A DNA stretch of 64,000 nucleotides from Eubacteriales bacterium. GTDB taxonomy: Bacteria > Bacillota > Clostridia > Oscillospirales > CAG-272. The DNA lies in assembly GCA_045589435.1 (NCBI GenBank), contig JAZNPB010000008.1:21478-85477 (forward strand), in the 5' to 3' direction. A model generated the notes under the pieces. That model saw only the letters and a list, made by a program, of their open reading frames with translations. It searched no databases and was not told where the DNA came from. The translations under genes and the position numbers were made by a program. Shown in pieces: positions 13,450-60,630 of the stretch (position 1 is the stretch's first letter; the number at the start of each line of letters is the position of its first letter).

Positions 13450-13521
13450 ATGAAACAAATTTTATGTAGAATTTTGGTGTTACTCGTAGTAATCGCCGCT
13501 ATATTAGGTTTGTCCTCGTGT
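13450..13521 (+). other. Lipoprotein signal peptide with lipobox (Cys24)
   Basis: Basic n-region (K2, R7), hydrophobic core ILVLLVVIAAILG, lipobox L-S-S-C. Confidence 0.75.
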
Positions 13522-25500: not shown

Positions 25501-28500
25501 TACGATGCATCTAAAGTAAAGTATGAGTATCGTGATTTAGACGGTGAGTGGTATGCCGAAAGTGAATTCCGTCCAGAGAATGACAGTCCTTTTGGAACAT
25601 ATGCAGTTCGTGCATATATGGAAGGTAACAACAACTACGATAAGTTCTATTCAGATGAAGTTGAATTTGAAATTACCGTAAAGACAGTTACAATTCCCGA
25701 AATTAACGCAACACAGGAATATGTAGAAGACGGAGATAATTACCCAACTATTAAGGGTACCAACGACATATTTGCAGAGGGCGATCACGGTGATTATACT
25801 GTAGAATATGTAGAAGGTATTGGTACAAAAGTTGGAACAACCTATTACGTATATGTAACTCTTAAGGATACTGTAAATACTAAGTGGAGTGATGGTACTA
25901 CTGAACCTAAAACTCTCTCCTATAGACTTACAGGTACACCTGCAAATATTGTGGTTGACGATGGCAATGACAAGATCGTGGACGGTTGGACCTTTGGAGA
26001 GGAACCTGCTGATTATGCAGCGGTTATTAAGGCTCTCACAAAGGTTTACTTCAAGGGTGAAGAAGTTCAAGACTTTGCAATGTCACTTAAGTACTACACA
26101 AGCAATGATGCTAATGCTGTTGGTTCGACAGATGTTCCTCAAGACCACGGAACATACTACTTCAAGATAGTAGTGGCAGCAGGCGCAGGATACGATACAA
26201 CTGAAAGTGACTTCTATCAGTTCGAAATCGCTCAGGCTCCTCTTACCCTTGGAGCAGATGTTACCGGAATCACTATTGGTGGTGTAGAATACGGCACAGC
26301 TCTTGAAAGTGTAAGCGTTTCTAATAAGGTTTACTACTACGACGGAGAAGAGTACAAAGAAATCTCCGGTACATGGTCATGGGATTCCGATAGCGAAGAA
26401 CTCGGCGCAGTAGGAAACTACACACGCACTGCAATCTTCACACCTAGTGATGACAACTACGCTCCTCTCACAGTAGAAGACGTACAGATTACAGTAGTTC
26501 CCAAGACTATCACCGTAACAAACAGCAGCCCTGCTGAAGATAAGGATACCGATGATTATCTTGACCTTGAATTCAAGGAAAGCGGATACGTAGAGGCAAA
26601 CTTTACAACAGTTACATTCAAGTGGAACAACGAAGAAGTAACTCTTGTTAAGGGCGAAAGCGGTGATTACATTGTGACTGTAACTTACGCTGGCGGAACT
26701 GCAACTCAGTACACAAATGCAGGCGTTTACACAGTAATAGTAACTCTCATTCAAAATGCAGACGGCAGTTATAATTACAACTTCGGTGTAAAAAATGTCG
26801 AAGGAACACCTACACCTATTGTAACCCAAACGTTCGTATTCGAGATTGAGAAGGCAACGTTAACACTCACCAATGGATTACCCGAAAATGCAGATTGCAC
26901 TTATGGTGGTACTTACCATGATAAGGGCGCAAGCTACTTTGAAGGATTGGCAACTCTCACACATGGTACAAAGACCTTCACACCTAGTGTAACAATCGCT
27001 TACTCAACAGACGGTTCCACTTATGGTGATGAAAGCACAACTCTTACCATCGGCGATGTAGGATATTACAAGATTACTTACACATATACCGGTAATGGCA
27101 ATTATGCATACTTCTCTGGTGAGGTAAAAATTCAAATTACACCAGCGGAAGTAAGGGTTGAAACTCCTAAACATAAGGGTTCCTTCTACGAGGATACGTT
27201 TAACTTCCTTGATGATAAGAATGATCAACCTAAAGCATATGACGCTGTTACTGGAGTTGAGCTTGTAGGCGGAACATTCAGTTGTGTAAGCTTGCACTTC
27301 AATTCAGAAAACCCAAATAATAGCTATTACATGCTGTCCTATAATCCTAACAACGCTAACTATAAGTGTTCCACTAATTTTGAAGTTCCAGTTTCTCTCA
27401 TTACAGTTGCAACTCTTCAAAGAGGAACCGAACTTACTAAATACGGTAGTATTGCAAAAGCGTTGGCAGCTGCTACAACTAGCGGTGATAAGGTTTGGGT
27501 AATTCCTGATACAAGCGGTAACATTGTTATTGATACAACTGATGTAAGTAAGACTGTTACTGTTAATGCAGGAACAACCTTGATTCTTCCTTACGCTAAG
27601 TATAACGGTGGAAACGATGCGAATGGCACATACAGAAATAATAGCTATGTTGCAACACTTACAGGTGACGGACTTCCCAAGGATACCAATCTTAAGACAC
27701 TTGTAATTCTTGGTAACGGCGTAACACTTGAAGTAAAGGGAACTCTCCATATAGCAGGTGAACTTTCCGGTGGTAACGGCGGAGCTCATTATTCAAGTCA
27801 TACCAAGGGTAATTATGGAGAACTCAGACTTGGTACTGATTCAACTCTTATTATTCCTAAGGATGTGAACGGAAAGATTGAGTGCTACGGCTTCATAACA
27901 CCGCTTGGAGAAAATAACGGTAGTAAGGTTGAAATTAGAGGCGGTACACTTTATCAGCCATTCACTCTCCTTGACCACCAAGGTGGTACTGCTCTTTCCT
28001 CTATCAAAAACAAAATGAATAGCAACCATATTGCACCATTCTATGAGTATCAGTTCAGAAACGTTCAGACCGATGTTTCAATTCACTATGGCGGCAAGCT
28101 AACAGTTTATGCAAACATGGATGCAACTTTACCGTTAGTAAATACTCTTCAACATAATGGTACACTGGTATGTATGGTTGGCCACGAAAAAGATACCGAA
28201 ACTGATAAAATGCCAATGCTTCAGCTTACAAGTTCAGAGTCGTACCTTAACGCTAAATTTGATAAGACAACTGGAATTCTGGACCTTGATCTCTTTGGTG
28301 GAGCAAAGCTTAACAGCATGGTTATGACGATTACGTTTGGAACGGATATTCCATTGTCAACTGAAAGCGTATTCTTCCCATTATCATGGACCATGGATAT
28401 TTCTCTTAATCCTACTGAAGAGCAAAAGTCCCAAAATAGAATAGCGCAATATAACGCTCCTTATATGATGCAGCTTGCTTGGGGAGGCAAATTCACAGTT

Positions 28501-31500
28501 GAGAAGGGCGCCAAATTTACGGTAAAAGATTTGGTTATCCATGATAACTATGAAACTAATCACAATATAGGTCTTCAGGAATATGCAAAAGCCAGCCCTG
28601 ATAAAGTGACAAGTAGACAAGATGCGATGTTCATTCTTAGAGGCGAGCTTTTTGTAACAGACGCAATCGGCGGCAAAGTTCGTGCTGACACTCCCGGTGC
28701 AAAGATTATCGCAGCTAGCGTTTCCTGCGTTTGGTATAAAGTGACTAGTAATAAAGCTGCAACAGAAGCTCTTACTTATAATCTCTCACTCTGGAAGCAT
28801 AGCAAGAGTGATGAAACTATCACCTATACTCAGTCTGATGTATCTGCAGCTGCAGGTGTGATTGCTTGGTATAACGGAAACGATTGGGTATCCGGATCTA
28901 CAGATACCGGCTTTGATGTTGTTATCAAGTACGTTGGTATCAATTCCGATGGAACGGAAACGGAAATCAAGAGTGATTATCACCATACCTATGATATATC
29001 CACGCTTAGTACGATCTTTGCAAACACGTTTATTGATCTTTCCGATGCTGATGATGGTAACTATAAGTTCATCGGTTGGTACTTATGTAAAGGCAATAAC
29101 GGATTCACTGATGAATACAGAATAATTACCGATAGAATTAGTCTTGAAGAGCTTTATACAAAGCTTGCTGCTGACGGTTATAACAACGTTACTATCTACT
29201 GCGTAATGGCTAACCCATCTTACACATTTGAGTATGATGATGGAACTGATTCTACAGCAGATGATAGCACGGCAAAATATTCTGCAACTCAGCTTCCTTA
29301 TGCATCTCTTGTAACTCTCGATCAGTATGACTTTGATACAACGGTTTCAAAATATCATACTGGCTGGAAGCTTGTTGATGCTAACGGAAACGAAATTGCA
29401 ACATTCACCAGAACAGATGTTATCACATGGAGCGTACCTGATCTTGAAGATATAGTAACAGCATATCTTTCTTCTATAGAGTGTGTTGATAATAACTACA
29501 CCTTCAAGCTTGTTGCAGTATGGACAGACAAGACGGCTGTTACTGTAAATTACGGTGAAAATGTTATTGATCTTGAAAATACTGTAATCTATCTCAACCA
29601 TGCATTTGGTCAGAGTAGTTACGACGATCTCGCGGATCTTACAATGGGAGATACTGAATACGATAAGAGCCTTTACTCTAACGGATGGGAAACTCCCGAT
29701 GGTGTAACCGTTTCCGGAACGACTGTAACTATTACGTCAACTGCAAACGTAGAGATCAAGGCTAAATGGCTCAATAAGGTTGTTCTCACTATCTATTATG
29801 GTGAAAATAGTCTTGGCTTGTCCCCTGTAACTACTATTTATCTAAATACAAGCCAAAATCAGACGTCTTATAAGACCAGTGTTCTTGCCGCTAAGACTGA
29901 CTCTACCAAGGAAACATTCTTCAATGGTTGGAAGGAGATGAGCAACTGTACAGTTAATGCTGCCGGAGATATAATCAATGTAACTTCCGGAGCAACAGAA
30001 GCTTCTATTCTTGCCAATACATGGGGAGTTAAGGATTGTGTAACAGTTGAATACGGCAATAACAACTTAGGTCTTCCCTTATCTAAGATAATCTATATTA
30101 ATCCTGATACTAATTCTTGTGTTATCGATAACGTAAATGCAAATGATGCTAATGTTACCGTAATTAAGTACTTTGACACTTGGGTTGGATTTGCTCTTAA
30201 TGCAGATGGTACTTATACTTACACAACCGACACAGGTATAACAATTACTATCAATGGCAGAAACATCACACTTGGTGGCAGCCTGACAGACACTGTAGAT
30301 AACGTTATTATCACAGCAAAGTGGGGAGAAAAAGAAAATATCAAGTTCAGTGGAAACAACGGTCTTACCGGTGAGAGTAATGTTAGTGTTGACGTTGAAG
30401 GTTATGTAAGAACTAATACCAATGATAACTTTGTTGCAGATATACAAAAAATGTTGGCAGATAAGATCAAAGATCAGGCTAATATAAAGGATAGTGATCC
30501 TGATGTAAATCAGTATTTCTATGGTTTATCTTATAATGGCAAGACTTATAGTGAATACGATTCTGATAATCCTTATTCCAATATGGAGTATGTAGAAAAG
30601 GTTAACTCCATAACAGTTGAATGGACTGGCAAATATGAAGTAAAAGTTTCGTCAAGCAATGCTAATGTAACGGTTAATGGAAATTCAGTAAGCAATAACG
30701 GAAGTGTATATTTTAAGCCCGGTGACAAAGTTACAGTAAGTGTTAGTTACACTCAGACTGAAAAACAAACTACTACCATAACAGGCGCAGATAAGACTAC
30801 TTATACTTCTCCATTCGATATGCCTAGCCAAGCGGTTACAATTAGTGCTAGTAGCTCAAGCTGTATCGCAGCCGGAACACTCATCACCCTCGCAGATGGA
30901 ACACAGAAGAAGGTTGAAGATCTCCTTGACACTGATATTCTTCTCGTTTACGATCACGAGAGAGGAGAATACGTTGCTTCACCTATTGTATTCATCGAGA
31001 GAGACGGTTGGAATTACTACAACGTAATCTATCTTGAATATTCAAACGGTGTTACTAATAAGCTTATTTACGAGCACGCTATGTTCGACCTCACTCTTAA
31101 TACTTACGTATATATCACAGAGGCAAATTACCTTGATTACGTAGGTCACGAGTTCGCATACTTCAACGGTGAATCTATTGAAAGTGTGACTCTTGAAAAC
31201 GCATACGTTAAGAATGAGTACACAGGCTGCTTCAGCTTGGTAACAGCAGTTCATCTCAATTACTTCATTGATGGAATGTTCTCGATCCCAGGTGGTATTG
31301 AAGGCATATTCAACATCTTCGAGTACGGAGAGGACCTTAAGTATGATTCTGAACAGATGCAGAAGGATATTGAAACTTACGGACTTTACACTTACGAAGA
31401 TTTCGCAGAGTATGTTCCGGAAGAAGTATTCTATGCATTCCAGGCACAGTACTTCAAGGTTGCAGTTGGCAAGGGTATGATCACATTTGAAGAAATCATC

Positions 31501-31545
31501 GAAATGATTGATAGATACCTTGTTAAAAACGGAGTTATTGAATAA
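13450..31545 (+). CDS. Giant (6031 aa) surface lipoprotein/adhesin: MBG/YDG-like repeats, conserved module, Listeria-Bacteroides-type repeats, C-terminal Hint domain
   Basis: One uninterrupted 18,096-nt frame with RBS aaagga upstream. Signal peptide plus lipobox MKQILCRILVLLVVIAAILGLSSC. Dozens of 80-110-aa repeats with recurring motifs (F.YDG..H, IY.G..Q, ATYGD.L, GTY.Y.A.FTP.D.NY, NYKW.D). No LPXTG, SLH, choline-binding or dockerin motif noticed. Confidence 0.9.
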   Translation: MKQILCRILVLLVVIAAILGLSSCNIFIEPELTTYDLVVEDFDREVVFGSELDLEGLYLRATTGDDVKVIPVNASMIKNGDTSSVGEKELTIEYGGFSWQLSYDVYYKVEHIVDGMVYDSQMVMSRDELFYVKEPSKTGSIFLSWDKAIPSELTDNLTITAVFLDGLELPKFSATYGDTLGDLELPEAKGGHWEWKHDLDTPVGNAGKLNTFTLAFIPEVNTENAIEFDVNISVAKKELEIRVLEDTFEYDGEKHNVKYAIYDGDKLVDYFVNVIEFSSPQSVIGTYDYTIQMADANYTATARKGSFSIVKIAVTVRVELDKSSIKYGEDFPGYRIIVEKDGEAFDFEDGIKLGIIKPATLEKGYYDIVATVKDENGDDIDNLYKYDITYVNAGFTVEGIDFNPGKPQFSTADGTDIFYGDKLSKVVFDPHPNGEWTWDFDYAGGDTVGDANPEPKLFRAIFTPYDTSYNVYYADIAIEVRKKELNVDLDMNNPAEKTVTVIYDGKEHGIKYVIWDWDANHEEKIDLTDKFSVTGNVTYVTAKEEGYKIVIRIDHPNYTGEDEFKLIIKKAVPETDFDRIITATWQSGMTLASIELPQGYAWEPVGNTAPNKVAVTGAGTYTYTATFTPEDTTNYLTVTDDFTVVVTHANSTIDGLNASYDSWTFNNNDHKLADLLSGITVTGTDRVVKYYYNGREVTTLKEAGTYLITVRVLESGQYKEVSADTIVIIKRATAEINNYGIPDNGWTYGHDAKTPYAYKNLSYVGDIVVEYKLASAADSAYTTTVPTLAGAYVARFSIVGGEGYNWNSAEPKYVNFTIAKAVVTAPTITSKIYTGSSQKADVEPTDLYTIKENLGGTNAGNYNVVLALTDSANYKWEKTDAAEYTATFSIGKAPNAIAPFEAGTWVYGDEISHSTTATFGEVVKITYYDKQNNKVTSFDAGEYVARAEVEGTSNYEGAVLSVNFTVGQLPVAVPELKENTFIYTGSLIKPEFKTAIPENAPYWVTNDGKVAVNNSTTPTYAVTLQLKNNNYKWADGDTSNIKSLTYVINKAEAKISGLTITGWTFGDDANSPSASTTFGTISYDYYVNGAWQTAAPKNAGNYTVRATVNGTGNFDGDFATFDFTIAKADATINGVNADKKYTTVYSGSKFSIAGVTSSHTETTPVYTIKNSAGVTVGEMVNADTYTVIISLASTANYNAAESIEVEVFIDKFDVHTPELVSNSRMYNKGIYKPAVKTDAHNKYYTYEYSTPDSTIVGTYSVNFTLNNENYRWDDATFANVLTYNITKANAEITLTSNAFEKYYRIQGYTRADVITGVGRSHEESELSYSIESFGDANTYTVIVSLPASHNYNAAENKTITVTIKKQLVYAPSISDLIYNGAAQAPDVDDSDLYEVFENVGGTNAAAYNVVLRLKNSANYKWSDDATDEAEKTTVVYNIKPATITLSELTTKTFKYLDTISFTSQKSYNVDNKTDFGVVRYIYSKTADFAVTVTPDDVGFYYVKAYVDGDINWGYEETLPVRFQITERPFDVPALSWTSKVYNDEILKPTVAKDDNIYSVQFVTENSEDVGTYTVKFTLTNSNYKWNDAYSGTERSRTYSITPATPTIAGFASTSKPYDTHAMNLSTTASIPGSTLSATITYYSAKDDAAVIPAPTNFGTYYVKASVGSGKNWSAASTDFIEINITKASANITVDTSDIVVTYGDTFALPIATTNLGSVNVDKTVADLVNVGTYYVTYTVVGNTNYNGDTETVKVIIGELAVDEPTVIGTLTYLTNASGVAIEQQVNLGVLPSYMTIKEGTNKGTLAGGYTVEITLDKNHKWAENSDGRVEWSIAKAKLTKPTANTATFTYNTESQTYTPVNFDAKTMSITNNVQSNANETGYSVVVSISDTANYEWVGGTQENIGFTFVINKLEVVEPQAIGTLTYMVDSENVAIAQQVNLGVLPSYMTVVEGTDVKSAAGNYTAKITLDENHKWASGSDGDVEWSIAKAKLTKPTANTTTFTYNTESQTYTPVNFDAKTMSITNNVQSNANETGYSVVVSISDTANYEWVGGTQENIGFTFRIYKLAVEEPTVSSTHTYTSVEHTVTLDKFYDSYMDIVLGTDKGTAAGNYCVEIKLDDNYVWKFGHDGKVDWTIAQATTSITGLSITGWTYDQYNAVTNKANYTVTTDSGFVIPESYIKVWYKSTKAGSTWSEIVPTDADTYQFKVVVGTDANENWAAEELISNEFTVEQLAVNEPTATGTYTYTVVDNEAIVHEVTLVGYDSSYMTITLGTNKESTAGTHTVIITLDNNHKWAENSDGHVEWSIAKAKIDLKDVEWNYSDAFAYNGEAKSVALKTASLPGGFGTIYTVNYTNNSETDEGDYTASAAFAFLGNNSSNYEFVGTVADCEWKIDPAEDNVVTFTAGATSWTYGDTVSYTATSTYGTPTIKIYDSEGTLLATSTGANGTATVSIKLNADTNYKVTVTYETSANWNTVENVEATFGVAQSTAYTAKANSIDDAVYGDLLLAKRAIPTGTVTVNGTTLAGTWKWQNVTSETKVGSAGTNTFYATFTPDDANYAATTNIAVTVNVAKYGLAVPNGIQVEYNDGHTVYSGVASSYFNDKLSSDGILDTDIIDVVDNGGSAVGDVVTLTLTIKDEFKGNYYWISYNADETVATTTYIVVVDKNSWEVDGEPTDMEWTYGEDGEVVDEPTANPVSGIGSEKKITYKLQSDADIPENWNDWSTISAETPAGTYDVKFVVTHPNYADMEKTVKLVIKTRVVELPTLATNSFTYQGKDAQGNDIVITPVVTHNDDETLYETINTGNVNVGTGYKITFTLPNKNYEWADGHGNEDNKLVYELTYNITAATDNEGTFTAGATSWTYGDTVTYTATSKYGTPTIKLYDSEGTLLETFTGANGTATVSIGLGAGTGYKVKVTYETSANWNAVADKETTFDVAQSTAYTATADSINAVYGDLLLSKKEIPTGSASIAGTWSWNSANAETTVGDFGTNKFYATFTPDDANYAATTNIAVTVNVAKADIVKPNITVNATYGDTLADIKSQLSNYDNANGNWTWVDADTTSVGDHGRNTFKAKFTSTDSNFNSIDEYPVTVVVAKKDISGATITLTGPALTYTGAAQTQNYTVELDGFATFTYDDDNTNVATNAGTHTITIAGTGNFDGEVTKIFEIKEKTITADDITVSEIIYNGEEQTPSVTVEIDGIIGSITYDVTWSDATVKDVRPEGRLYSVTVTGTDNFDGVVTKEFNVTPLDITENENVEISLDNSLTYNNGTTLIQQFTVRVKVVTTEGEKVLIVPCNVLEKTNEVKIAGSHTLRVEANDDNFTGTAITTFSVAKDNYDMSNVQWSASTFEYNQTEREVTIVSGLPTGVTVTGYEKNKGTVKGDYTATAILSYDEQNYHAPSATHNWSITTAYIEMPTKGTTSFTYDGTEKTFFSQTSTYWTATGTLKATDASTRKYVVTITFNAADIGSCQWKNAETGKETAALTYEYTISPLDITNATVNLDTSTPLVYGGNMTQNVISITKDGKTFLVKDGEVVNFLISGNVAETAGIHPLTVTANNSNFTGFVTCDFNVAKDTFDMTGVHWNYSGTPFVYAKNTTHTVELVGLPVGLTPVYSGVYSASEFGTYTAKVTFTYDTVNYEKPTVADCEWKINPAEDNVGTFTPGTTSWTYGDTVTYTATSTYGTPTIKLYDSEGTLLETFTGTNGTATVSIGLGAGTGYKVKVTYETSANWNAVADKETTFDVAPSTVYTATADAITDAVYRDLLLSKKEIPTGSASIAGTWSWTSANAETTVGDFGTNTFYATFEPTDPNYAVKTNVPVTVIVDKATFNMDGVKWDYSGTPFVYAKNTTYTVKLVGLPEGLTPKYGGVCSASAATDDHYTATVSFEYDASNYYAPGEIDDLEWKIDRAPVNRPAKDTTVYTYDGVTTHEYKIVKNDEFYKIEGTLSAMAGGTYEITITLADGNNTKWDDGSTASLVYDFVVGKGTNAFTGTLTMEGWEHDSTATTPSGITGAKWDYDASKVKYEYRDLDGEWYAESEFRPENDSPFGTYAVRAYMEGNNNYDKFYSDEVEFEITVKTVTIPEINATQEYVEDGDNYPTIKGTNDIFAEGDHGDYTVEYVEGIGTKVGTTYYVYVTLKDTVNTKWSDGTTEPKTLSYRLTGTPANIVVDDGNDKIVDGWTFGEEPADYAAVIKALTKVYFKGEEVQDFAMSLKYYTSNDANAVGSTDVPQDHGTYYFKIVVAAGAGYDTTESDFYQFEIAQAPLTLGADVTGITIGGVEYGTALESVSVSNKVYYYDGEEYKEISGTWSWDSDSEELGAVGNYTRTAIFTPSDDNYAPLTVEDVQITVVPKTITVTNSSPAEDKDTDDYLDLEFKESGYVEANFTTVTFKWNNEEVTLVKGESGDYIVTVTYAGGTATQYTNAGVYTVIVTLIQNADGSYNYNFGVKNVEGTPTPIVTQTFVFEIEKATLTLTNGLPENADCTYGGTYHDKGASYFEGLATLTHGTKTFTPSVTIAYSTDGSTYGDESTTLTIGDVGYYKITYTYTGNGNYAYFSGEVKIQITPAEVRVETPKHKGSFYEDTFNFLDDKNDQPKAYDAVTGVELVGGTFSCVSLHFNSENPNNSYYMLSYNPNNANYKCSTNFEVPVSLITVATLQRGTELTKYGSIAKALAAATTSGDKVWVIPDTSGNIVIDTTDVSKTVTVNAGTTLILPYAKYNGGNDANGTYRNNSYVATLTGDGLPKDTNLKTLVILGNGVTLEVKGTLHIAGELSGGNGGAHYSSHTKGNYGELRLGTDSTLIIPKDVNGKIECYGFITPLGENNGSKVEIRGGTLYQPFTLLDHQGGTALSSIKNKMNSNHIAPFYEYQFRNVQTDVSIHYGGKLTVYANMDATLPLVNTLQHNGTLVCMVGHEKDTETDKMPMLQLTSSESYLNAKFDKTTGILDLDLFGGAKLNSMVMTITFGTDIPLSTESVFFPLSWTMDISLNPTEEQKSQNRIAQYNAPYMMQLAWGGKFTVEKGAKFTVKDLVIHDNYETNHNIGLQEYAKASPDKVTSRQDAMFILRGELFVTDAIGGKVRADTPGAKIIAASVSCVWYKVTSNKAATEALTYNLSLWKHSKSDETITYTQSDVSAAAGVIAWYNGNDWVSGSTDTGFDVVIKYVGINSDGTETEIKSDYHHTYDISTLSTIFANTFIDLSDADDGNYKFIGWYLCKGNNGFTDEYRIITDRISLEELYTKLAADGYNNVTIYCVMANPSYTFEYDDGTDSTADDSTAKYSATQLPYASLVTLDQYDFDTTVSKYHTGWKLVDANGNEIATFTRTDVITWSVPDLEDIVTAYLSSIECVDNNYTFKLVAVWTDKTAVTVNYGENVIDLENTVIYLNHAFGQSSYDDLADLTMGDTEYDKSLYSNGWETPDGVTVSGTTVTITSTANVEIKAKWLNKVVLTIYYGENSLGLSPVTTIYLNTSQNQTSYKTSVLAAKTDSTKETFFNGWKEMSNCTVNAAGDIINVTSGATEASILANTWGVKDCVTVEYGNNNLGLPLSKIIYINPDTNSCVIDNVNANDANVTVIKYFDTWVGFALNADGTYTYTTDTGITITINGRNITLGGSLTDTVDNVIITAKWGEKENIKFSGNNGLTGESNVSVDVEGYVRTNTNDNFVADIQKMLADKIKDQANIKDSDPDVNQYFYGLSYNGKTYSEYDSDNPYSNMEYVEKVNSITVEWTGKYEVKVSSSNANVTVNGNSVSNNGSVYFKPGDKVTVSVSYTQTEKQTTTITGADKTTYTSPFDMPSQAVTISASSSSCIAAGTLITLADGTQKKVEDLLDTDILLVYDHERGEYVASPIVFIERDGWNYYNVIYLEYSNGVTNKLIYEHAMFDLTLNTYVYITEANYLDYVGHEFAYFNGESIESVTLENAYVKNEYTGCFSLVTAVHLNYFIDGMFSIPGGIEGIFNIFEYGEDLKYDSEQMQKDIETYGLYTYEDFAEYVPEEVFYAFQAQYFKVAVGKGMITFEEIIEMIDRYLVKNGVIE
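18721..19644 (+). repeat. Two tandem 462-bp (154-codon) in-frame repeat units
   Basis: The motif caggtcaacc is at 18799 and 19261 (offset 462). Cores 18940-19173 and 19402-19635 differ at 6 of 234 nt. More diverged partial copies at about 19645-19860 and 20140-20380. Confidence 0.9.
20611..21168 (+). repeat. Dispersed intragenic repeat, copy D1
   Basis: Encodes DCEWKIDPAEDNVVTFTAGATSWTYGDTVSYTATSTYGTPTIKIYDSEGTLL...FYATFTPDDANYAATTNIAVTVNVAK. Homologous to D2 and D3. Confidence 0.9.
22012..22506 (+). repeat. Dispersed intragenic repeat, copy D2
   Basis: Offset from D1 is 1356 nt (acctcttgga at 20671 versus 22027). Its 3' part (ttctacgcaaccttcacacccgatgatgcgaactacgcagcaacaaccaatatcgcggttactgtaaacgtagcaaa) is identical to D1. 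Confidence 0.9.
24388..24868 (+). repeat. Dispersed intragenic repeat, copy D3
   Basis: Offset from D2 is 2421 nt (acct at 22027 versus 24448). Perfect D2/D3 runs of 126 nt (22139-22264), 64 nt and about 69 nt. The two off-frame ORFs 21875..22195 and 24368..24616 translate to near-identical peptides. Confidence 0.9.
27091..29210 (+). other. Conserved module of about 700 aa shared with the truncated paralog at 33886..35900 (function unknown, beta-solenoid-like)
   Basis: Collinear protein similarity by eye. Giant first, paralog second: GNGNYAYFSG / NGNYAYSG; VWVIPDTSGNIVIDT / VWVIPNTSGDVIIDT; LILPY in both; ECYGFITPLGENNGSKV..LYQPF / NCYGFITEESKNNGSQV..IYQPF; FFPLSWTMDISLN / YFPISWVFDISLN; F.GWYL..IY (IYCVM / IYAKW). 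Confidence 0.8.
29000..30325 (+). repeat. Five Listeria-Bacteroides-type (Flg_new-like) repeats
   Basis: Repeated pattern ..Y..(F/Y/H).GW......(I/V).A.W: YKFIGWYLC..IYCVM; YHTGWKLVD..LVAVW; YSNGWETPD..IKAKW; FFNGWKEMS..LANTW; YFDTWVGFA..ITAKW. Confidence 0.65.
30862..31284 (+). other. Hint (Hedgehog/intein-type) autoprocessing domain, 141 aa, starting at Cys5805
   Basis: Block A: SSSS|CIAAGTLITLADGTQKKVEDLLDTDILLVYD. Block B-like: NKLIYEHAMF (the His is present). Block F/G-like: GCFSLVTAVHLNYFIDGMFS. The usual terminal His-Asn and a +1 Cys/Ser/Thr extein residue are absent. Confidence 0.75.
31285..31542 (+). other. 86-aa acidic, aromatic-rich, probably helical tail following the Hint core
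   Basis: IPGGIEGIFNIFEYGEDLKYDSEQMQKDIETYGLYTYEDFAEYVPEEVFYAFQAQYFKVAVGKGMITFEEIIEMIDRYLVKNGVIE. No family recognised. Confidence 0.5.
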
Positions 31546-31596
31546 TCAATAACGGCAAAATCTCAACTGACAAACCGAACTTGAGAAACTAAACAA

Positions 31597-31726
31597 CAAA
31601 ATTCCTAGGGGTGAAAATCCCCTAGGAATGACCACAAGAATTTACAATTTAAGCGCAAAATACGGTTTCGTATTTTGAAATAAGAAAAGCCCACCGCAGA
31701 TCTTTATGGTCTGCGGTGGGTATTTT
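31597..31726 (+). repeat. Three-hairpin 3' module, left copy; hairpin 3 acts as a bidirectional terminator
   Basis: H1: ttcctagggg-tgaaaat-cccctaggaa (31602-31628). H2: aaatacg-gttt-cgtattt (about 31658-31675). H3: cccaccgcaga-tctttatgg-tctgcggtggg (31690-31720) followed by tatttt. Inverted homolog at 33063-33192. Confidence 0.8.
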
Positions 31727-31766
31727 CGTATTAATTTTAGTTAATAATATTCTTTTTTAAGGCTAA

Positions 31767-32870
31767 TTATTCATTGAATTTTGAGTTGTTTTTTGCGAAG
31801 TCTTTCATAAATTCCACAAGGCTTTCAACCGCCTCAAGGGGCATGGAATTATAGATAGATGCGCAGATTCCGCCGATGCTTTCATGACCTTTCAGGTTGG
31901 TGAAGCCTGCCAGCGAAGCCTCGATACAGAATCGCTCATCAAGGGCAGAGCTACCGGTATTGAACACCACGTTCGTCATGGAACGGCATTTTTTATCGAT
32001 AGTTGAAATATAGTAGAACTGACCGTCGATAAAATCATAAAGGCAGCTGGCTTTTTTCTCGTTTCGGCGCTTCATTTCCTCAAGTCCACCGATGGATTTT
32101 ATCCATTGGAATACCAGCTTTGCCACGTAGATATTAAACACAGGGGGAACGTAATCTGATGCGCCCTGCTCGGAGAGGATCTCGTAGTTAAACATGGATG
32201 GTGTTTCGGGAAGAGGGTTGCCAATCAGGTCGGAACGAATGATAACAACCGTCATAGCCGCGGGAGCAACGTTCATCTCGGAGCTAGCATAGATCATTGC
32301 AAATTTCGAAATATCAATAGGCTCGGAGAGGATGCAAGAGGACATATCAGCAACCAATGGGATGTTACCCGTGTCCGGAACTGCCGGGAATTTTGTTCCG
32401 TAAACCGAGTTGTTATAGCAAATATGAACATAGTCCGCGTCGGGGCGGAAGCTGGAGCGAGTTGCCTCCGGAATAGTTGAAAAAATAGGTGTCGCGCCAC
32501 CGGAAGAAGCCGCAACGGCAATGTCACCGTACCTCTTTGCCTCCAGCATAGCCTGACGTGAGCGCTGTCCGGAGAGAATGTAGTCCGCGCACTTGTGAGC
32601 CGAGAGCAAATTCATAGGCACCATGGAAAACTGCTGTGTTGCATCGCCCGGAAGGAACATTACCTTGTAGTTTGCGGGAATGTGCATCAGCTCGCGCAGG
32701 AGTCTTTCTGCATCGTGCAAAATCTCTTTGAATGCAGGGGATTTCGGGCTGATCTCAAGGATCGACATTCCGGAATCGTTGTATGATAAAAGATCTTTCT
32801 GAACTTGCTCAATGACCTCCGCGGGTAGCATAGCAGGCCCGGAGGCGAAATTATATACTCTTTTTGACAT
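31767..32870 (-). CDS. Phosphoserine aminotransferase (SerC)-like protein lacking the PLP-binding lysine; probable pseudoenzyme or neofunctionalised paralog
   Basis: Collinear over its full length with E. coli SerC as I recall it (NF.SGPAMLPAEV; IP.NYKV.F; ADMSS.ILS.PID.S; LKGH...GG..ASIYN.MPLE.V..L..FM..F). The AGAQKNIGPAGL motif reads ASSEMNVAPAAM. RBS aaggag present. Confidence 0.85.
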   Translation of the reverse strand: MSKRVYNFASGPAMLPAEVIEQVQKDLLSYNDSGMSILEISPKSPAFKEILHDAERLLRELMHIPANYKVMFLPGDATQQFSMVPMNLLSAHKCADYILSGQRSRQAMLEAKRYGDIAVAASSGGATPIFSTIPEATRSSFRPDADYVHICYNNSVYGTKFPAVPDTGNIPLVADMSSCILSEPIDISKFAMIYASSEMNVAPAAMTVVIIRSDLIGNPLPETPSMFNYEILSEQGASDYVPPVFNIYVAKLVFQWIKSIGGLEEMKRRNEKKASCLYDFIDGQFYYISTIDKKCRSMTNVVFNTGSSALDERFCIEASLAGFTNLKGHESIGGICASIYNSMPLEAVESLVEFMKDFAKNNSKFNE

Positions 32871-32907
32871 TTTACGTAATTTTCTCCTTGGTAGGACTTT
32901 TTCTTAT

Positions 32908-32936
32908 ATTATACTATTTTTTCAAGGAAAAATCAA
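32908..32936 (-). promoter_or_regulatory. Promoter of the SerC-like gene
   Basis: Minus-strand TTGATT (32936-32931), 17-nt spacer, TATAAT (32913-32908), about 38 nt upstream of ATG 32870. Confidence 0.5.
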
Positions 32937-33062
32937 GAGGTTTGGGAGTTTTTAGTTATTTTGTGGGGTGTATAGATAAAAACACTGCTTTTTTTGCTTT
33001 TTAATTTGCTTTTTATGAGTTTAAAAAAGCAGCGTCAAATATTACTAAATTAGCTAAAAAAA

Positions 33063-33192
33063 TCACCCACCGCAGGCCATAAAGATCCGCGGTGGGCTTT
33101 TTAATTTCAAAGCACAATCCCGTGCTTTTTCATTGAATTTTGTAAATAATGGTTTTCATTCCCTAGGGGTTTTCGCAAACCCCTAGGTTTTT
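33063..33192 (-). repeat. Three-hairpin 3' module, right copy (inverted); terminator of the truncated paralog
   Basis: H1': ccctagggg-ttttcgcaaa-cccctagg (33161-33187). H2': aaagcac-aatccc-gtgcttt (33109-33128). H3': cccaccgc..gcggtggg (33066-33096), with ttttttt following on the minus strand. Confidence 0.8.
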
Positions 33193-33243
33193 TCGTTGAA
33201 ATAACTTCGTTGAAACATAATAGGTTTTACTAATAAATGTTTA

Positions 33244-35900
33244 TTAGTAATTTAACAGTTTAAGCTTTGTATAAACTGTTCCGGCAGTGGAAGTCCAAGT
33301 TATTTGAGCACTTGTCGATATGCGACCACTATATCCTTGTTCTGTTAGTGTTGTACCATTTTCTGTTAATCTAACGCTATTTTTATAATAACCATAGGTT
33401 CCCAATCCGTAAGTTCCTCCGGATACTTTGGATGTTATAGTCACCGTACCATTCGCATTATATTGAACAGTTACACTATGATAATCACCTGCGGCCAAGG
33501 ACGTTGTATCAAATGTTATTCTTGCTAACACAACAATTGAAGTTGCTGTGCAAGACGAACCTTCACTACCATTTATTGTTACGTTTTGTGTTTTATCACT
33601 ACCGTTAGTAATGTTATTAACGCCCTCAACATAACCTGTGGTGAATTTAGGAAGCGTATCAGTACCTAAAATATGATAGGACTTCATGTGATATACCAAC
33701 GTCGTTCCTGATTCTACGTAAATTACTTTAACACCGCTATAGTTTCTAGTGTCAAATCCGCCTTCGTAAAGAATAGCATTTCCGTTCGCATCAGCATAGT
33801 ACGCTTCACATGTGATATATGCTCCATCAGGGAGATCTGGAAGCGTTACCGCTACATAACTAGATACAGGTTTAATTTCTGTGATCCACTTTGCATAAAT
33901 TTTAATTACATCAGAAGATAGCACATCATAATTCGTAGCACTTGTGATAGATCCAAATCCAACACTAAATGTTGTATTATCAAGATACCAACCATCAAAT
34001 ATCTTATCACTTCTTTCATGTGTAGGTGTGGGAAGCTTTGAAACTACATATGCTTCTTTGACCTCGTCATATTTCACTACAATATCATCACATGCATTGC
34101 CGCCGTTAGTAACAAATTCAAGTGTAACTTGATCTAGTATCCATTTTCCATTGTATACTTTTGCAGATCTTCCTGACGTAGTTATGCCAACGGGCGCACT
34201 TACACTAACCATATTACCGTCCGCATCATATGATTCGAAGTAACAAAGTGAAGTGTTAATAATGTTACTATGCCATGTATCTATGTGTCCAGTGGTGGTT
34301 GTTTTGCCTAATATTGTTGAAGTTGTTGTATAGTAAACACATTCAAACAATGTCAGGGTTGGACTTTCTGAAATACTAACAGTTGCGCCATGATTATTAG
34401 AGTAAATCTTACCTGCGAAGTTGGTTGCAACTAATGATCCATTGACTACAAATACTGCTTCGCTCGTTATTGGACACGGATTGGGATCGCCGGTTGGAAG
34501 ATTGTGAATACTGTCATAAACGGCGAAGTTTCCAGCGGTAAATTCAGTATTTTCATTTACAGTCAATCTTGCACCATGCATTAACTTTGTTGGATAGTTG
34601 ATTTGATATTTAGCAATAGCAGTTTGATCGTTAGCTTGATTCAATGATATATCAAATACCCAGCTTATTGGGAAGTAATACTCCGATGTGTTTACGTCAA
34701 TCGAGCCAAGATCCACGCCCAGTACTTCTCCCAATATTAATGTCATTTTAATCTCATTCAACCTTGCACCACCATATATATCTAACTTACATGGATTGCC
34801 GCTTTGTGCCAACAATTTATCATGATCATATTTCGCTACAACTTTACTGTAAGTTGAATCTGTAAGTTCAAGAAGCGCAGCAGATCCATTTCCAATTACT
34901 GACAAGGTTGCAGGATTGTGTTTTCCACCGGCATAAAGGTTGGCCCATCCATACAAACTAGCAGCATGATATATTGTCATTTCGGGTCGAACGTTCATTA
35001 GAACAAACTCACTAAATGGAGCCTGTGACAAAGTGTTTTTCTTATCGTACACAGTCTTCATATAGGTACCGCCGCCAAAGTCAAGGAATACAAATGGCTG
35101 ATAAATGCTTCCTGCGTTGAGTATTACTTGGCTTCCGTTGTTTTTAGACTCTTCTGTAATAAAGCCATAACAATTAATAACAGCGTCTTTAGAACCTGTA
35201 GGTATTTCTATTTTTGAATTGCTGCCCAATACTAATTCTGCATACAAACCTTCCGTGTGACCTGCATAAGGTGTACCGCCGGAACCACCAGCCAACTGGC
35301 CTGATATCTCAAGGATACCATTCAGCGTGATAGTCTTGCCAGCCGACAACTTAACTAATGTCATTCTTTCTTTCAATTCTGAAAGTGAGTAACCACCTAC
35401 TATCGTTGCGGTGGTGCTGGTGTTTCTACCATTAGCATCATCTGTAGTTCCGTAAGGAAGAATAAGAGTTACATCAGAATCAATAGTAAGATCAGTATCG
35501 ATAATTACATCGCCTGAGGTGTTAGGAATTACCCAAACGGTTCCACCACCGGTACTGTCATTCGCTGCTGTAACAGCATCAAATATTGTGTAATAATTGG
35601 TGCTATTATAGGTGGCTACTGCCGTAAGGTTGACAGTATAATCTGTTTTTGATACAGATTTATAATTTGAACTTGTAGGAGTGAATACAATTGTAAATGT
35701 TGCAACACCCGCGTCTATCGAAACGCCAGTAAACTCAAACGCACCGTCAACACTTGCAACGCCTGTAGTTGAAATCTTACTCAAATCGATAAGATTCTTA
35801 TAGGTCTTACCTGTGTAAGTAGGCCATGTCGTTACTGTAGGTGTATCCTGTGTAATCTGGATAGTTACACTAGTTCCGGAGTAGGCATAATTGCCATTAT
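33244..35900 (-). pseudogene. 5'-truncated paralog of the giant protein's conserved module (no start codon context, RBS or signal peptide); frame still open
   Basis: Homology to giant aa about 4548-5250 begins abruptly at NGNYAYSG (about nt 35900), in the last strand of an MBG-like repeat. The ORF-track N-terminus (TTG at 36015, MKASSTLPYSVTRPPFFHIITHFFHF) is antisense translation of a GTGG-box region. No in-frame ATG for about 200 codons. One Listeria-Bacteroides-type repeat (FDGWYLD..IYAKW) plus a unique 213-aa tail. Confidence 0.7.
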
Positions 35901-36238
35901 GGGAAGTTGACAATTTTTTTAGGATTTTTGCGGTAGAGAAGTGGAAAAAGTGGGTGATGATGTGGAAAAAAGGAGGGCGGGTTACGGAGTAGGGAAGCGT
36001 TGACGATGCCTTCAAGCAAAAATGAGCGGGAAACTGATTTTTCTTTTGTGAATATACTGAAAATGCTTGAAAGGTGCTTTGGATTTGCGGTTTTTTAGGA
36101 GTTTGTTAAAAAATCTGCGCAATGTAACAAAATAATCACATTTTCGCCACAAAACTCTAAAAAAATCTCAACAAAACCTACATAGTTTATATAAAAATTC
36201 GAAATATATTAACTTTTATTAAATATTGGAAAAAGATG

Positions 36239-36267
36239 TTGACAAAAACTATGAATTATGTTAAAAT
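36239..36267 (+). promoter_or_regulatory. Extended -10 promoter for the small lipoprotein gene
   Basis: TTGACA (36239-36244), 17-nt spacer ending in TGt, TAAAAT (36262-36267). Confidence 0.55.
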
Positions 36268-36336
36268 AATATCACAAGAGGAAAAACTCTTTGAAATAAA
36301 AACAAAAAAATAAATAAACAAAAGGAGACACACACA

Positions 36337-36726
36337 ATGAAAAAGACAATTTCTACAATCCTCGTATGCGTTCTTCTCGTAGGTTCGCTTCTTTCTCTCG
36401 CTTCTTGCGAAGTAGCAGGTTTCGTATTCGGAACTTATTCCAGAACAGACAAAATTATTGTTGACGTAACAACAACATACGAGTTCTCACTCACAGAAGT
36501 AACAAAGACCGTTACAACTGAAAACCTTATCGGCGACGGCAAGAACACAACAACCGAGACCATGAAGTACAAGGTTGGCGAAAACGATGAAGGCGAAAAG
36601 GTTATCGCTTTCACAGTTGAAACAGATGACGGTTCCAAGACAACAGAGTATAGCTTCAACTCCGGCAAGGATGACGGTGGCTCTTACATCGAAATCGCTG
36701 GTACAAGATACTACTCCGTAAAATAA
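36337..36726 (+). CDS. Small hypothetical lipoprotein (129 aa)
   Basis: RBS aaaggag. Signal peptide plus lipobox MKKTISTILVCVLLVGSLLSLASC. Thr/Glu/Asp-rich mature part. Confidence 0.7.
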   Translation: MKKTISTILVCVLLVGSLLSLASCEVAGFVFGTYSRTDKIIVDVTTTYEFSLTEVTKTVTTENLIGDGKNTTTETMKYKVGENDEGEKVIAFTVETDDGSKTTEYSFNSGKDDGGSYIEIAGTRYYSVK

Positions 36727-36790
36727 TTCAGTAAATACTTAAAACCTAATCGTTTTAGTTTTCATTTCATATTTCTCTCTCCTAATTTTA

Positions 36791-36817
36791 CGGGAAGCTT
36801 AGGCTTCCCGTTTTTTT
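36791..36817 (+). terminator. Intrinsic terminator
   Basis: cgggaagc-ttag-gcttcccg followed by ttttttt. Confidence 0.8.
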
Positions 36818-36919
36818 GCATTTTTATTCTCTTTTCATCGCATAAAAAATCCTCTTGAAAAAACAATAATTATATGTTATAATAGAATGATGTATTATGT
36901 GTAATTTTTTGGAGGAATA

Positions 36920-37834
36920 ATGAAAAACGAAAAAACAAAAGCGTTTTTATATAGCAATGGCCTTGTGATCTTAGGTACGGTAATTCTTGCTTTCGGCAGT
37001 GCAGTATTCTTGGTACCATTTGATTTGGTAATGGGCGGCACGTCGGGAATTGCAATAGCTATCAAGGAATTTTTCTTTGATAATGCCTCTCCCGAAGAAG
37101 CAAATCTTTATATCGAAATTGTTATTGCTATAATCACTTGGACTTTGTTTTTTATTGGCCTTATTTTCCTTGGCAGAGAATTTGCCGCAAAAACGTTGCT
37201 TTCGACTATAGTTTACCCTTTGGTTTTCCCGTTGCTTCTGATGTTGGTTTCGGAGGATGTGCTTGGCGGATTTTTCTACCTTGAGGGAAATGAATATAGC
37301 GAGCTTGCTCTCATCTTTTCCGGTGTAATGGGTGGCATGCTTTTAGGTGCGGGAAGCGCAATTGCGTTCCTAGGAGGAGGCACTACCGGAGGCACGGATA
37401 TCCTGTCGTTCCTCATATGCAAATTCTTCCCGAAATTAAAGATCTCGCAGGTAACGTTTTTCATAGATTTCACTATAATTCTTCTTGGAATCTTTGCTGT
37501 TAAAAATATTATTGTATCCGGTATCGGCGTTCTTTCGGCGTACGTTTCATCCCTTGTTATCGACAAGATATTCTTGGGTGGAAAGACGGCGTACGTTGCA
37601 AATATTGTGACTACCACCCCCGATGAGATCAGCCGTGATGTTATCGAAATTCTCGATAGAACGACCACCATAATGGATTGCAAAGGTGCGTATTCCGGCG
37701 AACACAAAAATATCGTCATGGTGTCATTTACCATGCGAGAATACCGCGAAATTCTAAGTATAGTTAGCAAATATGACAAAAAAGCCTTCATTACGGTGAG
37801 CAAGGCTCACGAGGTTTCCGGCGAAGGTTGGTAA
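36920..37834 (+). CDS. YitT-family membrane protein (C-terminal DUF2179-like domain)
   Basis: GGTSGIAIAI and GGGTTGGTDILS motifs. C-terminal TTTIMDCKGAYSGEHKNIVMVSFTMREYREILSIVSKYDKKAFITVSKAHEVSGEGW. Confidence 0.8.
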   Translation: MKNEKTKAFLYSNGLVILGTVILAFGSAVFLVPFDLVMGGTSGIAIAIKEFFFDNASPEEANLYIEIVIAIITWTLFFIGLIFLGREFAAKTLLSTIVYPLVFPLLLMLVSEDVLGGFFYLEGNEYSELALIFSGVMGGMLLGAGSAIAFLGGGTTGGTDILSFLICKFFPKLKISQVTFFIDFTIILLGIFAVKNIIVSGIGVLSAYVSSLVIDKIFLGGKTAYVANIVTTTPDEISRDVIEILDRTTTIMDCKGAYSGEHKNIVMVSFTMREYREILSIVSKYDKKAFITVSKAHEVSGEGW

Positions 37835-37858: not shown

Positions 37859-38860
37859 ATGAAAAGAAAAATAACCAGGGATGATATAGTGAATTTTTTG
37901 AAAAAACAAGATTATAAAAAGATGATCAGGCAGGGGATTATGATATTGGCAAGTGCCTTTGTTCTTGCCTTGGCAGTAGAGCTGTTCATAGCTAAATTCA
38001 AATTGGTTTCGGGCGGAGTTACCGGCATTGCCATCGTTCTTGCAGAGCTGTTTGAGAAAACTAATAATGCTTTGAATGCTGAGTTCTGGATAACCCTTTT
38101 GACGTGGGTGTTCTTCTTCCTTGGATTTATTTTCGTTGGCAAAAAGTTTGCTCTGAAAACCTTGCTCTTTACCATAGTTTATCCCGTTTGTCTTCATATT
38201 GTCAAACTGTTTTTGGAGTGGGAATTTTTTGGTGATTATTTTAGCAAAATTTCAGAACCTACCAATGAAACCTATCAGGTCGGACTTGTTCTTGCCGCGG
38301 TAGTTGGAGGCGCATTGGTCGGCCTTGCAATAGCTATTTCATTTATGGCAGATAGCTCCACCGGCGGTGTTGATATTATCTCTCTTGCAATCTGTAAATT
38401 CTTCCCGAAGATTAAGCTCTCTCACGTTACCCTGATCATCGACGCTTCAATCGTTGTAGCAGGTATGTTTGCAACACAGGATTTTGTTAAATCTCTGCTC
38501 GGTATCATTTCTGCCGCAGTGACCTCGTTTATGATCGATAAGGTATTTCTCGGTGGCTCGAGAGCATTCATTGCGCAGATCGTGTCAGAAAAACATGAGG
38601 ACGTACGTACGGCAATTCGTGACGAGCTTGACAGAACGTCAACCATCTTTGACTGTATTGGCGGATACTCCGGAGAGAATAAGAAAATGGTCATGGTATC
38701 CTTTACTATGAGTCAGTATGCGCAGCTTATGAGTATTCTTGATCGCATTGATTCCCAGTGCTTCGTAACAGTACATAGAGCTCATGAAATCGGTGGACTT
38801 GGCTTCTCCATAGAGAAAAGGGCTGCATCTTCGTCAGCTTCCACAAAAAATAATTTGTAA
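37859..38860 (+). CDS. YitT-family membrane protein, tandem paralog
   Basis: Same motif set (SGGVTGIAIVL; DSSTGGVDIISL; STIFDCIGGYSGENKKMVMVSFTMSQYAQLMSILDRIDSQCFVTVHRAHEIGGLGF). Confidence 0.8.
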   Translation: MKRKITRDDIVNFLKKQDYKKMIRQGIMILASAFVLALAVELFIAKFKLVSGGVTGIAIVLAELFEKTNNALNAEFWITLLTWVFFFLGFIFVGKKFALKTLLFTIVYPVCLHIVKLFLEWEFFGDYFSKISEPTNETYQVGLVLAAVVGGALVGLAIAISFMADSSTGGVDIISLAICKFFPKIKLSHVTLIIDASIVVAGMFATQDFVKSLLGIISAAVTSFMIDKVFLGGSRAFIAQIVSEKHEDVRTAIRDELDRTSTIFDCIGGYSGENKKMVMVSFTMSQYAQLMSILDRIDSQCFVTVHRAHEIGGLGFSIEKRAASSSASTKNNL

Positions 38861-54992: not shown

Positions 54993-55017
54993 ATTGATCT
55001 AATTTTGAAAGCTGAAA

Positions 55018-55775
55018 TTAGATAGCAGTGTAACCACCGTCAACAGGAAGAATAACGCCTGTAACGTAGGAGGATTCCTCTGCGCCAAGTAAGATTGCAG
55101 CGGAGTTAAGCTCACCCTCATGACCGTATCTTCCAAGTGGAACTGTAGCCTTCATGTAGTTTGTGAACATCTCTGTGTTAAGAGTGTCAACAGTAAGCTC
55201 GGTAGCGAAGTAACCGGGGCAGATAGCGTTGCAAGTAATGTTGTACTTTGCAAGTTCAGCTGCAACGGCTCTTGTCATGTTAACAACACCACCCTTGGAT
55301 GCGTGGTAAGCAACAGTGTCGATTGCAGGGTTACCTACAAGACCGTACATAGAAGCGATATTGATAATTCTACCGTAGTTGTGCTTCTTCATAATGTTAG
55401 CGAAAGCACGTGTTACGTAGAATACGCTTGTCATATCGGTGCTGATAGTGAAGTCCCATTCTTCGTTTGTCATACCGAGAACACCTGCGTTCTTTGCGGA
55501 ACCTGCGCAGTTAACAAGAACGTAAACCATGCCAAATTCCTTTTCAACAGTAGCAGCACCTCATCTACCATAGCAGAATCGGTAACGTCGCACTTCAAAG
55601 GAAGAACACGAACACCCATTGCGCGAAGCTCCTCTGCAAGAGCCTCAAGCTTTTCAAGTCTGCGAGCTGTAATAACCAGGTCTGCACCCTGTGCAGCATA
55701 GCCACGTGCCATCTGTGCGCCAAGGCCGGAGGACGCGCCGGAAACTACTACAACTCTACCTTTGTAATTGAACAT
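55018..55775 (-). pseudogene. SDR-family oxidoreductase interrupted by a 1-nt frameshift (or sequencing error)
   Basis: N-terminal part is MFNYKGRVVVVSGASSGLGAQMA...CDVTDSAMVDE (ATG 55775, RBS gggaga). After about nt 55558-55564 the continuation is in another frame: (G)AATVEKEFGMVYVLVNCAG...IASMYG...YHASKGGV...PVDGGYTAI, which is ORF 55018..55530. Confidence 0.8.
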
Positions 55776-55891
55776 GATTTTTTCTCCCAAATAAAAAAGT
55801 ATTTTGTCTAAAAAGACAGATGTATTATATCGTATGTTAAATTAAAGTCAATGTTTTTCAATAATATTTTCTAAAAAGCCGCAGCCATAAG

Positions 55892-55925
55892 AAAAGCTCC
55901 CCAAAACATATAGGGAGCCTTTTAT
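55892..55925 (-). terminator. Probable terminator after the pullulanase gene
   Basis: aaaagctccc-caaaacatata-gggagcctttt. On the minus strand the stem is followed by cttttctt. Confidence 0.45.
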
Positions 55926-56008
55926 AAAAACTAAAAAGTAAAATATCAATAATTTGTTCATTTATAGAAAATATGCAATAAATGTAAAATATGATTTACA
56001 TTTTAAGG

Positions 56009-58165: not shown

Positions 58166-58265
58166 ATAATAACCCCTAAAATTTAATTGACCGCCAATAT
58201 TATACCAAAAAATAGAAGAAAAGTAAAGTGGTAATGTAAAAATAATTCAATAATCGAAAAAAAGC

Positions 58266-58303
58266 AAGCACTCGCCCTAAAATAGATGAGGCAAGTGCTT
58301 TTT
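58266..58303 (-). terminator. Hairpin with U-tract (works on both strands) between the pullulanase promoter region and an orphan small unit
   Basis: aagcactcgcc (58266-58276) pairs with ggcaagtgctt (58290-58300) with one mismatch. A6 lies upstream and TTT downstream on the + strand. Confidence 0.5.
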
Positions 58304-58750: not shown

Positions 58751-58784
58751 CAAAAAACAAGAGCGACCGCAAAGATCGCTCTTG
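58751..58784 (-). terminator. Intrinsic terminator of the AcnX operon
   Basis: Minus strand: caagagcga-tctttgcgg-tcgctcttg followed by tttttt. Confidence 0.75.
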
Positions 58785-58866
58785 AAAAATATTAATCATC
58801 ATTTTTAGTCTTTTTCAGGGAGAAAGGGGATCACCTTTGACGGTGGAAGGAGAATGCGAGAGCTGA

Positions 58867-59313: not shown

Positions 59314-59315
59314 AA

Positions 59316-60590: not shown

Positions 60591-60630
60591 TTTATTTTCT
60601 CCTTTATAGGATTTTTGTAAATATTGGTTA

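Follow-up and report, generated by a model that had tools for sequence, protein, structure and literature searches.

The window analysed here is a stretch of 64,000 nucleotides (nt) on contig C8 (124 kb) of a metagenome-assembled genome (MAG) which comprises 2.57 Mb in 155 contigs, with a completeness of 79.6% and a contamination of 5.3%, and which is designated G000 among the family genomes compared below. It holds the gene of a giant lipoprotein of 6031 residues (13450-31545, plus strand) and, on the opposite strand and tail-to-tail with it, an open reading frame (ORF) of 923 codons from TTG to TAA (33244-36015, minus strand) which has neither a Shine-Dalgarno (SD) sequence nor a usable start and carries no export signal. 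The best-supported reading is a shufflon-type head swap, where this ORF would be a silent alternative head cassette exchanged by inversion at two 20-nt repeats. We put this reading forward tentatively, as one that is quite possible while falling somewhat short of probable. A mechanism like that of pilS, which had been suggested in an earlier note on this DNA, is wrong. The analysis showed how the locus is arranged, that a flip made in silico yields an in-frame product, that the ORF is intact and that start-less heads with conserved boundary sites occur in the same family.

Intact frame and conserved edges of the start-less ORF

The frame of the ORF is open over its 923 codons, whereas stop-free runs in the five remaining frames of this DNA average 12.5 codons and reach 69 at most, and the frame of the ORF is therefore a preserved coding sequence rather than a chance opening. 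Codons 40-923 (33244-35899; 884 codons) are homologous to the head module of the family, while codons 1-39, upstream of 35899, are non-homologous sequence that is open by chance. The alignment with the giant protein by BLASTP starts at the residues NGNYAY (ORF residue 40), and the earlier note had placed the start of homology correctly, near nt 35900. Its other statements on the sequence were confirmed as well, namely the long stop-free frame, the TTG start that lacks an SD sequence and is followed by about 200 codons without an ATG, the missing signal peptide and lipobox, the retained terminator module and the low DNA identity to the expressed copy. A GGAGG-type SD site was found at none of the eight ATG, GTG or TTG candidates in the first 260 codons, and the first in-frame ATG is codon 218. 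At the three neighbouring starts that were read (serC, the lipoprotein gene at 36337 and the gene at 7048), sites of the GGAGG/GGAGA type are present. Residues 1-60 contain, by inspection, neither a hydrophobic signal nor a lipobox. Only weak promoter-like sites were observed upstream on the ORF strand, and the spacer of 321 nt holds a good promoter that belongs to the divergent gene at 36337.

Several possibilities for the DNA ahead of the homologous part were considered and rejected. Upstream start or signal sequences displaced by a frameshift were not found, as the upstream frames are all closed or non-coding; because the other two upstream frames are closed, a simple frameshift hides no N-terminus of the ORF. 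Homology of the upstream region to the promoter region of the giant operon, with its GTGG boxes, amounts to words of 9-12 nt only, and its relation to the flanks of cassettes in other taxa amounts to words of 11 nt. The flank outside the ORF homology (35900-36336), which is non-coding and contains GTGG-type words as well as the promoter of the divergent lipoprotein gene 36337-36726, is not homologous to either the giant gene or its promoter region. A displaced 5' half elsewhere in the genome was also rejected, since the sole other locus with MBG-like repeats (contig C72) is intact, with 1707 residues and its own signal.

The head itself was observed to be well preserved. A profile of the family, made from 107 head modules with the ORF and the giant protein left out, begins to align at ORF residue 42 and gives 572 bits for the ORF, 458 for the resident head of the giant protein and a median of 516 for the training members, which places the ORF in the upper quartile of the family. 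The invariant and near-invariant columns of an alignment of 18 sequences are all kept. AlphaFold2 predicts a confident beta-rich solenoid for ORF residues 130-565 (34321-35628, minus strand), with a predicted local distance difference test score (pLDDT) of 85 and a predicted template modelling score (pTM) of 0.89. A Foldseek search of the PDB with the head of the ORF gave only weak resemblances to beta-helices (PfbA, AlgG and tailspikes), all with E values of at least 0.013, and Pfam holds no family for this module. With no stops, conserved columns kept and a confident fold, the signs of pseudogene decay are absent from the ORF.

Head modules of this kind are about 450-600 residues long and are usually located in the last, C-terminal third of proteins 1000-4000 residues long; 603 matches were found in representative proteins, 173 of them at E<1e-30. 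All the relatives with a complete N-terminus that were read have a signal peptide, a membrane anchor or a lipobox, either directly ahead of the head (P0009, P0010 and P0082) or ahead of longer N-terminal domains or a stalk (P0005-P0008). Short-frame hits in five genomes (G269, G079, G364, G277 and G207) also have normal signal peptides throughout. The ORF thus keeps the head module while, unlike normal members of the family, it is missing the signal and the stalk. Its closest match other than itself has an identity of 41%, so that it is without an ortholog, and the comparison with relatives that the earlier note had proposed found no close ortholog of the locus.

It is conceivable that the ORF is expressed by itself, from the TTG at codon 35 or the ATG at codon 218, to give a protein which is not exported by the Sec pathway or which takes another route. 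This would suit the open and undecayed frame, the terminator module of its own, the weak promoter-like sites accompanied by GTGG-type words upstream on the ORF strand and the public annotation, which starts at the TTG of codon 35 and gives a protein of 889 residues. We consider it quite improbable, however, as no candidate start has an SD site though the three neighbouring starts do, a start at codon 218 would cut the folded head, and the relatives that were read with a complete N-terminus all carry a means of export or anchoring.

Comparison of the ORF with the giant gene showed that the edges of the two bodies are conserved (95% at the 5' site and 81% in the 3' module) while the interior is saturated (49%). 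The BLASTP alignment covers residues 4549-5161 of the giant protein with an identity of 32% over 660 columns, or 37% over the 593 aligned residues. In the aligned codons the DNA identity is 49%, the third positions of identical residues agree in 44% and the same codon is used at 42% of identical residues. The sole BLASTN match between the two genes is 19/20 nt long and joins 27093-27112 (plus strand) with 35880-35899 (minus strand). It coincides with the exact 5' limit of homology in the ORF, is inverted relative to its partner and lies in the same codon phase. The copy in the ORF, s' (TAATGGCAATTATGCCTACT, 35880-35899), encodes (H)NGNYAY(S), and the copy in the giant gene, s (TAATGGCAATTATGCATACT, 27093-27112), is found at the junction between the stalk, within its last MBG-like repeat, and the head.

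At the other end, both bodies are followed by a module of three hairpins which occurs twice in the whole genome and is 81% identical between the copies over about 130 nt. The module of the giant gene is located at 31604-31735 (plus strand), where hairpin H1 occupies 31604-31626 and the terminator consists of H3 plus a T-tract at 31685-31726, and that of the ORF at 33051-33187 (minus strand), with the H3 repeat arm at 33060-33101 and H1 at 33162-33187. The H3 repeat arm of 42 nt is 90% complementary between the two copies, the H1 stems are identical with a different loop, and in H2 the structure is kept while the sequence differs. H1 of the giant gene was observed to be terminator-like on the opposite strand too.

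The saturation of the coding DNA excludes homologous gene conversion of the pilS/vls/MgPa type. The silent cassettes of Neisseria (pilS/pilE), Borrelia (vls) and Mycoplasma genitalium (MgPa) resemble the ORF in being start-less partial copies near an expression locus, but they need stretches of high DNA identity and usually come in many cassettes, whereas the single copy found here has a coding identity of 49% and shares no tract of more than 20 nt. The donor analogy drawn in the earlier note therefore fails, and the nucleotide alignment that it had called for, examined by BLASTN and by codon alignment, contains no conversion tracts, its longest match being the 20 nt (19/20) described above. 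The broader logic of a cassette fares better in the form of inversion at a short site, which the conserved edges, the in-phase repeat and the recurrence of start-less heads favour. Orphan C-terminal modules of Rhs and CdiA proteins offer a further comparison, as these 5'-less bodies downstream of a giant gene also keep a short conserved piece at their 5' limit and have highly divergent interiors. Unlike the surface head described here, which is inverted and has no immunity-like partner, they are normally direct-oriented and consist of a toxin with immunity genes.

A credible but on balance rather doubtful explanation, which takes up the very recent truncation that the earlier note had offered as its other option, is that the ORF is a non-functional remnant of a full-length or acquired paralog, or of a displaced head allele, which lost its 5' part in a rearrangement too recently to have gathered stops. 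This is the simpler reading, and single-lesion pseudogenes are common in bacteria. The locus has evidently been rearranged, with a serA-like gene gone, the SerC-like gene inverted and about 30 kb between genes that lie side by side in G059; the ORF is without start codon, SD sequence, strong promoter or signal, no recombinase lies nearby, and the repeat is statistically weak. The age of such a truncation would, however, be narrowly confined. About 3.7% of random substitutions in the ORF make a stop, and under neutral drift a stop becomes 50% likely by 0.7% divergence and 95% likely by 3%, limits which indels shorten, so that the truncation must fall within the last 0.7-3% of neutral divergence for substitutions only and within at most 1% with indels. 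Since the paralogs are saturated, selection would have maintained the copy during almost its entire history. In addition, a remnant leaves the placement of the homology limit at the best inverted DNA match, and the 81% identity of the 3' module, as coincidence, and start-less heads elsewhere in the family persist across species with ORFs that are only 37% identical. If the cassette reading is wrong, the ORF would be an ordinary young gene fragment.

Predicted inversion of the segment 27113-35879

According to the cassette model, the giant lipoprotein gene would possess, in the ORF, a silent alternative to its 3' end. The promoter, the lipoprotein signal and the repeat stalk would be supplied by the expressed gene, whose putative constant part (13450-27092, plus strand) consists of a lipoprotein signal (..LGLSSC) and about 4540 residues of MBG-like repeats. 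Its resident variable end (27113-31545, plus strand; about 1480 residues) is made up of the last repeat, the head module, more domains and a C-terminus with a Hint domain plus tail. The two head bodies would stand tail-to-tail downstream of the stalk, each with a copy of the three-hairpin terminator module and each limited at its 5' end by the same 20-nt sequence, inverted and in the same codon phase. The segment of 8.8 kb between the repeats (27113-35879) is predicted to invert, with the self-contained SerC-like gene that it encloses as a passenger. The stalk would then be joined in frame to the 884 residues of the ORF, giving a new head without a Hint end, and the resident head-plus-Hint end would be silenced.

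When 27113-35879 was flipped in silico, one uninterrupted ORF of 5432 residues was obtained, with a single terminal stop and the lipoprotein signal retained. In the reciprocal product of this flip it is the resident head-plus-Hint end that is left, just like the ORF now, without a start. An intact frame that has no start or signal, the tail-to-tail inversion and the in-phase repeat at the limit of homology are explained together by the cassette model, as are the two copies of the terminator module and the flip of the SerC-like gene.

Programmed inversions that alter genes, with the G segment of phage Mu, the C segment of P1 and the shufflon of R64 as classical examples, have been surveyed (PMC9881135; bioRxiv 10.1101/2023.03.11.532203). 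A neighbouring recombinase is usual and not universal, as some invertible regions have none nearby, and tail-to-tail pairing is typical when the repeats are located near the 5' ends (PMC9881135). The locus resembles these programmed inversions of the shufflon or partial intergenic type in that a putative constant 5' part would be expressed while 3' bodies that have no promoter or start are inverted, short candidate inverted repeats lie at the boundary between constant and variable parts within the coding sequence, and a flip of the convergent bodies would give an in-frame fusion. Unlike them, it has no adjacent invertase, and its mismatched repeat of 20 nt is below the 22-bp repeat filter used in PMC9881135. 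It also differs in that the segment of 8.8 kb includes an unrelated gene, the swapped part forms 880-1480 of 6000 residues and the inversion is here predicted from sequence.

The RecV-dependent switches of C. difficile (cwpV and flgB) are clostridial too and have imperfect inverted repeats of about 20 bp with a recombinase that is encoded far off. These switches invert non-coding regulatory segments of about 150-200 bp, unlike the coding bodies of the putative switch in the window.

A number of observations weigh against the cassette model. The repeat is only 20 nt long with one mismatch, and a window of 18/20 was found elsewhere in the codon alignment of the two genes. Five of the six codons at the conserved NGNYAY are identical, for which the chance probability is about 5%. 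The 20-mer is not conserved, as exact copies occur in G000 alone among 401 family genomes, where hits with two mismatches are also near the number given by a reversed-pattern control. No match to PF00239 or PF00589 (serine and tyrosine recombinases) was found on the 124-kb contig, and Pfam detected no recombinase domain in the genes of the window up to 54915, the ORFs of about 55000-64000 not having been scanned individually. Of the family genomes searched, G000 alone has two head modules in inverted orientation on the same contig. Furthermore, the species is known from one MAG and is a singleton in 15 billion proteins. An exact scan of metagenome contigs from the Joint Genome Institute (JGI) gave no match to either junction or to the motif. 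The genome does contain 22 recombinase hits (10 serine and 12 tyrosine), all of them on other contigs. That inversion takes place, how often it might do so and that a recombinase from elsewhere would act on the repeats is what we infer from the arrangement.

The source of the sequence was also weighed, as a contig that is chimeric or collapsed near 35900 would produce the ORF as an assembly artefact, with a full-length second giant gene in the true genome. The window derives from a metagenome bin, giant repeat genes break assemblies, and the contigs of relatives end at head boundaries. We hold such an artefact to be highly improbable, since no run of identical bases common to the two loci exceeds 15, which is not enough to lead a k-mer assembler astray, no other contig with ORF-like or stalk-like DNA ends at such a junction, and the flanks are ordinary single-copy genes.

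Should the cassette model hold, a single gene of 18 kb would encode at least two very different tips on the same stalk of 4500 residues, one of which ends in a Hedgehog-like self-cleaving domain while the other is without it. A large, uncharacterised family of adhesins from gut Clostridia would then join those diversified by programmed inversion.

Start-less heads in the same GTDB family

Start-less heads were also found in other genomes of the GTDB family to which the window genome belongs. Four contigs contain an internal head ORF of 660-935 residues that lacks a start (P0094, P0104, P0169 and P0056), and these ORFs have a mutual identity of 36-41%. The homologous part of each of the four starts at a conserved motif of 16 nt, ATAATACCGGTTATGT, and the DNA upstream of it is unrelated and non-coding. 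The synonymous sites of the motif are invariant, while the Val codon that follows varies (GTG, GTA, GTT or GTC) across the four loci and two further copies. Copies of the motif are located at 1820-1833 (minus strand) and 9989-10002 (plus strand) in L028, at 7447 in L029, 56 in L030, 672 in L031, 19810 in L043 and 5553 in L044, and at 1 and 8154 in L046. A further candidate for a truncated ORF, P0026, was rejected as a scaffold-gap artefact.

The two inverted copies in L028 lie 8.2 kb apart around a block of genes from sigma to groESL, and each of them heads a head body that points outward. In the MAG G378 the same block forms a separate contig of 8.3 kb, which is bounded by an inverted repeat of 103 nt ending in the motif, and contigs of G375 and G376 stop at the motif; the head bodies in these three MAGs were not binned. 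Two species whose GroEL C-termini are 95% identical have non-coding flanks that are 89% identical up to the motif and DNA that is 47% identical just after it, and their head proteins are 37.5% identical. Because the identity drops from 89% to 47% between species at the motif, start-less head ORFs with a conserved boundary site can be maintained for a long time and are not merely young debris. Each start-less body carries the same terminator hairpin, GAGCCCGAGGGAAACCTCGGGCTC, with which the bodies in L029 and L031 end. After the cassette, L029 (9672-10868, minus strand) and L031 (2940-3182, minus strand) have a convergent head or Hint gene in a tail-to-tail arrangement as in the window. A point that weighs against the cassette model is that no stalk reading into ATAATACCGGTTATGT, and hence no expression site, was found in the contigs examined.

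From these comparisons a wider proposal may be sketched, which we regard as rather unlikely as it stands. Giant surface lipoproteins in this family of uncultured gut Clostridia might swap their distal head by inversion among start-less cassettes, at TAATGGCAATTATGCNTACT in the window and at ATAATACCGGTTATGT in another clade. Such a swap could add or remove a self-cleaving Hint end, each cassette would have a matching terminator module, and the recombinase would be encoded elsewhere. The inverted segments could carry housekeeping genes, such as the SerC-like gene in the window or the sigma to groESL block in L028. With motif-bounded cassettes across the family, the question is testable in any long-read metagenome from gut or rumen.

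A near-consensus promoter (TTTACA, a 17-nt spacer and TATAAT) was observed directly upstream of the motif in G378 (L046, 8080-8150) and in L030 (1-55), and its -10 box is formed by the first six bases of the conserved site. In G236, two head-module genes with frames of 1655 and 1823 residues are located about 9 kb apart on one contig (C111, 2722-4104 and 13289-14602, both on the minus strand).

The SerC-like gene and the surroundings of the locus

The SerC-like gene (31767-32870, minus strand) lies between the two convergent head genes and has its own promoter and terminators. In five relatives (L007-L012) serC is followed by a serA-like gene, YitT and BipA, with all four genes pointing the same way, and relative to YitT and BipA the gene in the window is inverted. 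This inversion against the five relatives suggests that it travels as a passenger with the putative invertible segment. The serA-like dehydrogenase found between serC and YitT in G068 is gone here, and its best hit in the genome has an identity of 26% (contig C53). As the closest serC is only 65% identical, synteny is of limited help.

The lipoprotein gene at 36337-36726 has its counterpart in G059 (L022) beside a block of NTP-transferase, upp, rluD and uvrA genes. In the window the two are about 30 kb apart (6094-36336), a space taken up by the GTGG-box region, an ABC operon, the giant gene, serC and the ORF. Conservation of the sequences on either side of the giant operon is lacking in G019 and G301 as well, and the region thus behaves like an island.

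A search of Rfam gave no significant match in 31000-37000. The word GCGAAAATGTG, which is part of the GTGG box GTGGCGAAAATGTGA, occurs at 36137-36150 (minus strand) and at 6783-6797 (plus strand). Its reverse complement also stands ahead of the cassettes of L029 and L043, as matches of 11 nt only with an E value of about 0.17. Beyond the lipoprotein gene, two YitT/DUF2179 genes are arranged in tandem (36920-37834 and 37859-38860), where the relatives with a YitT match (L007-L009) have one.

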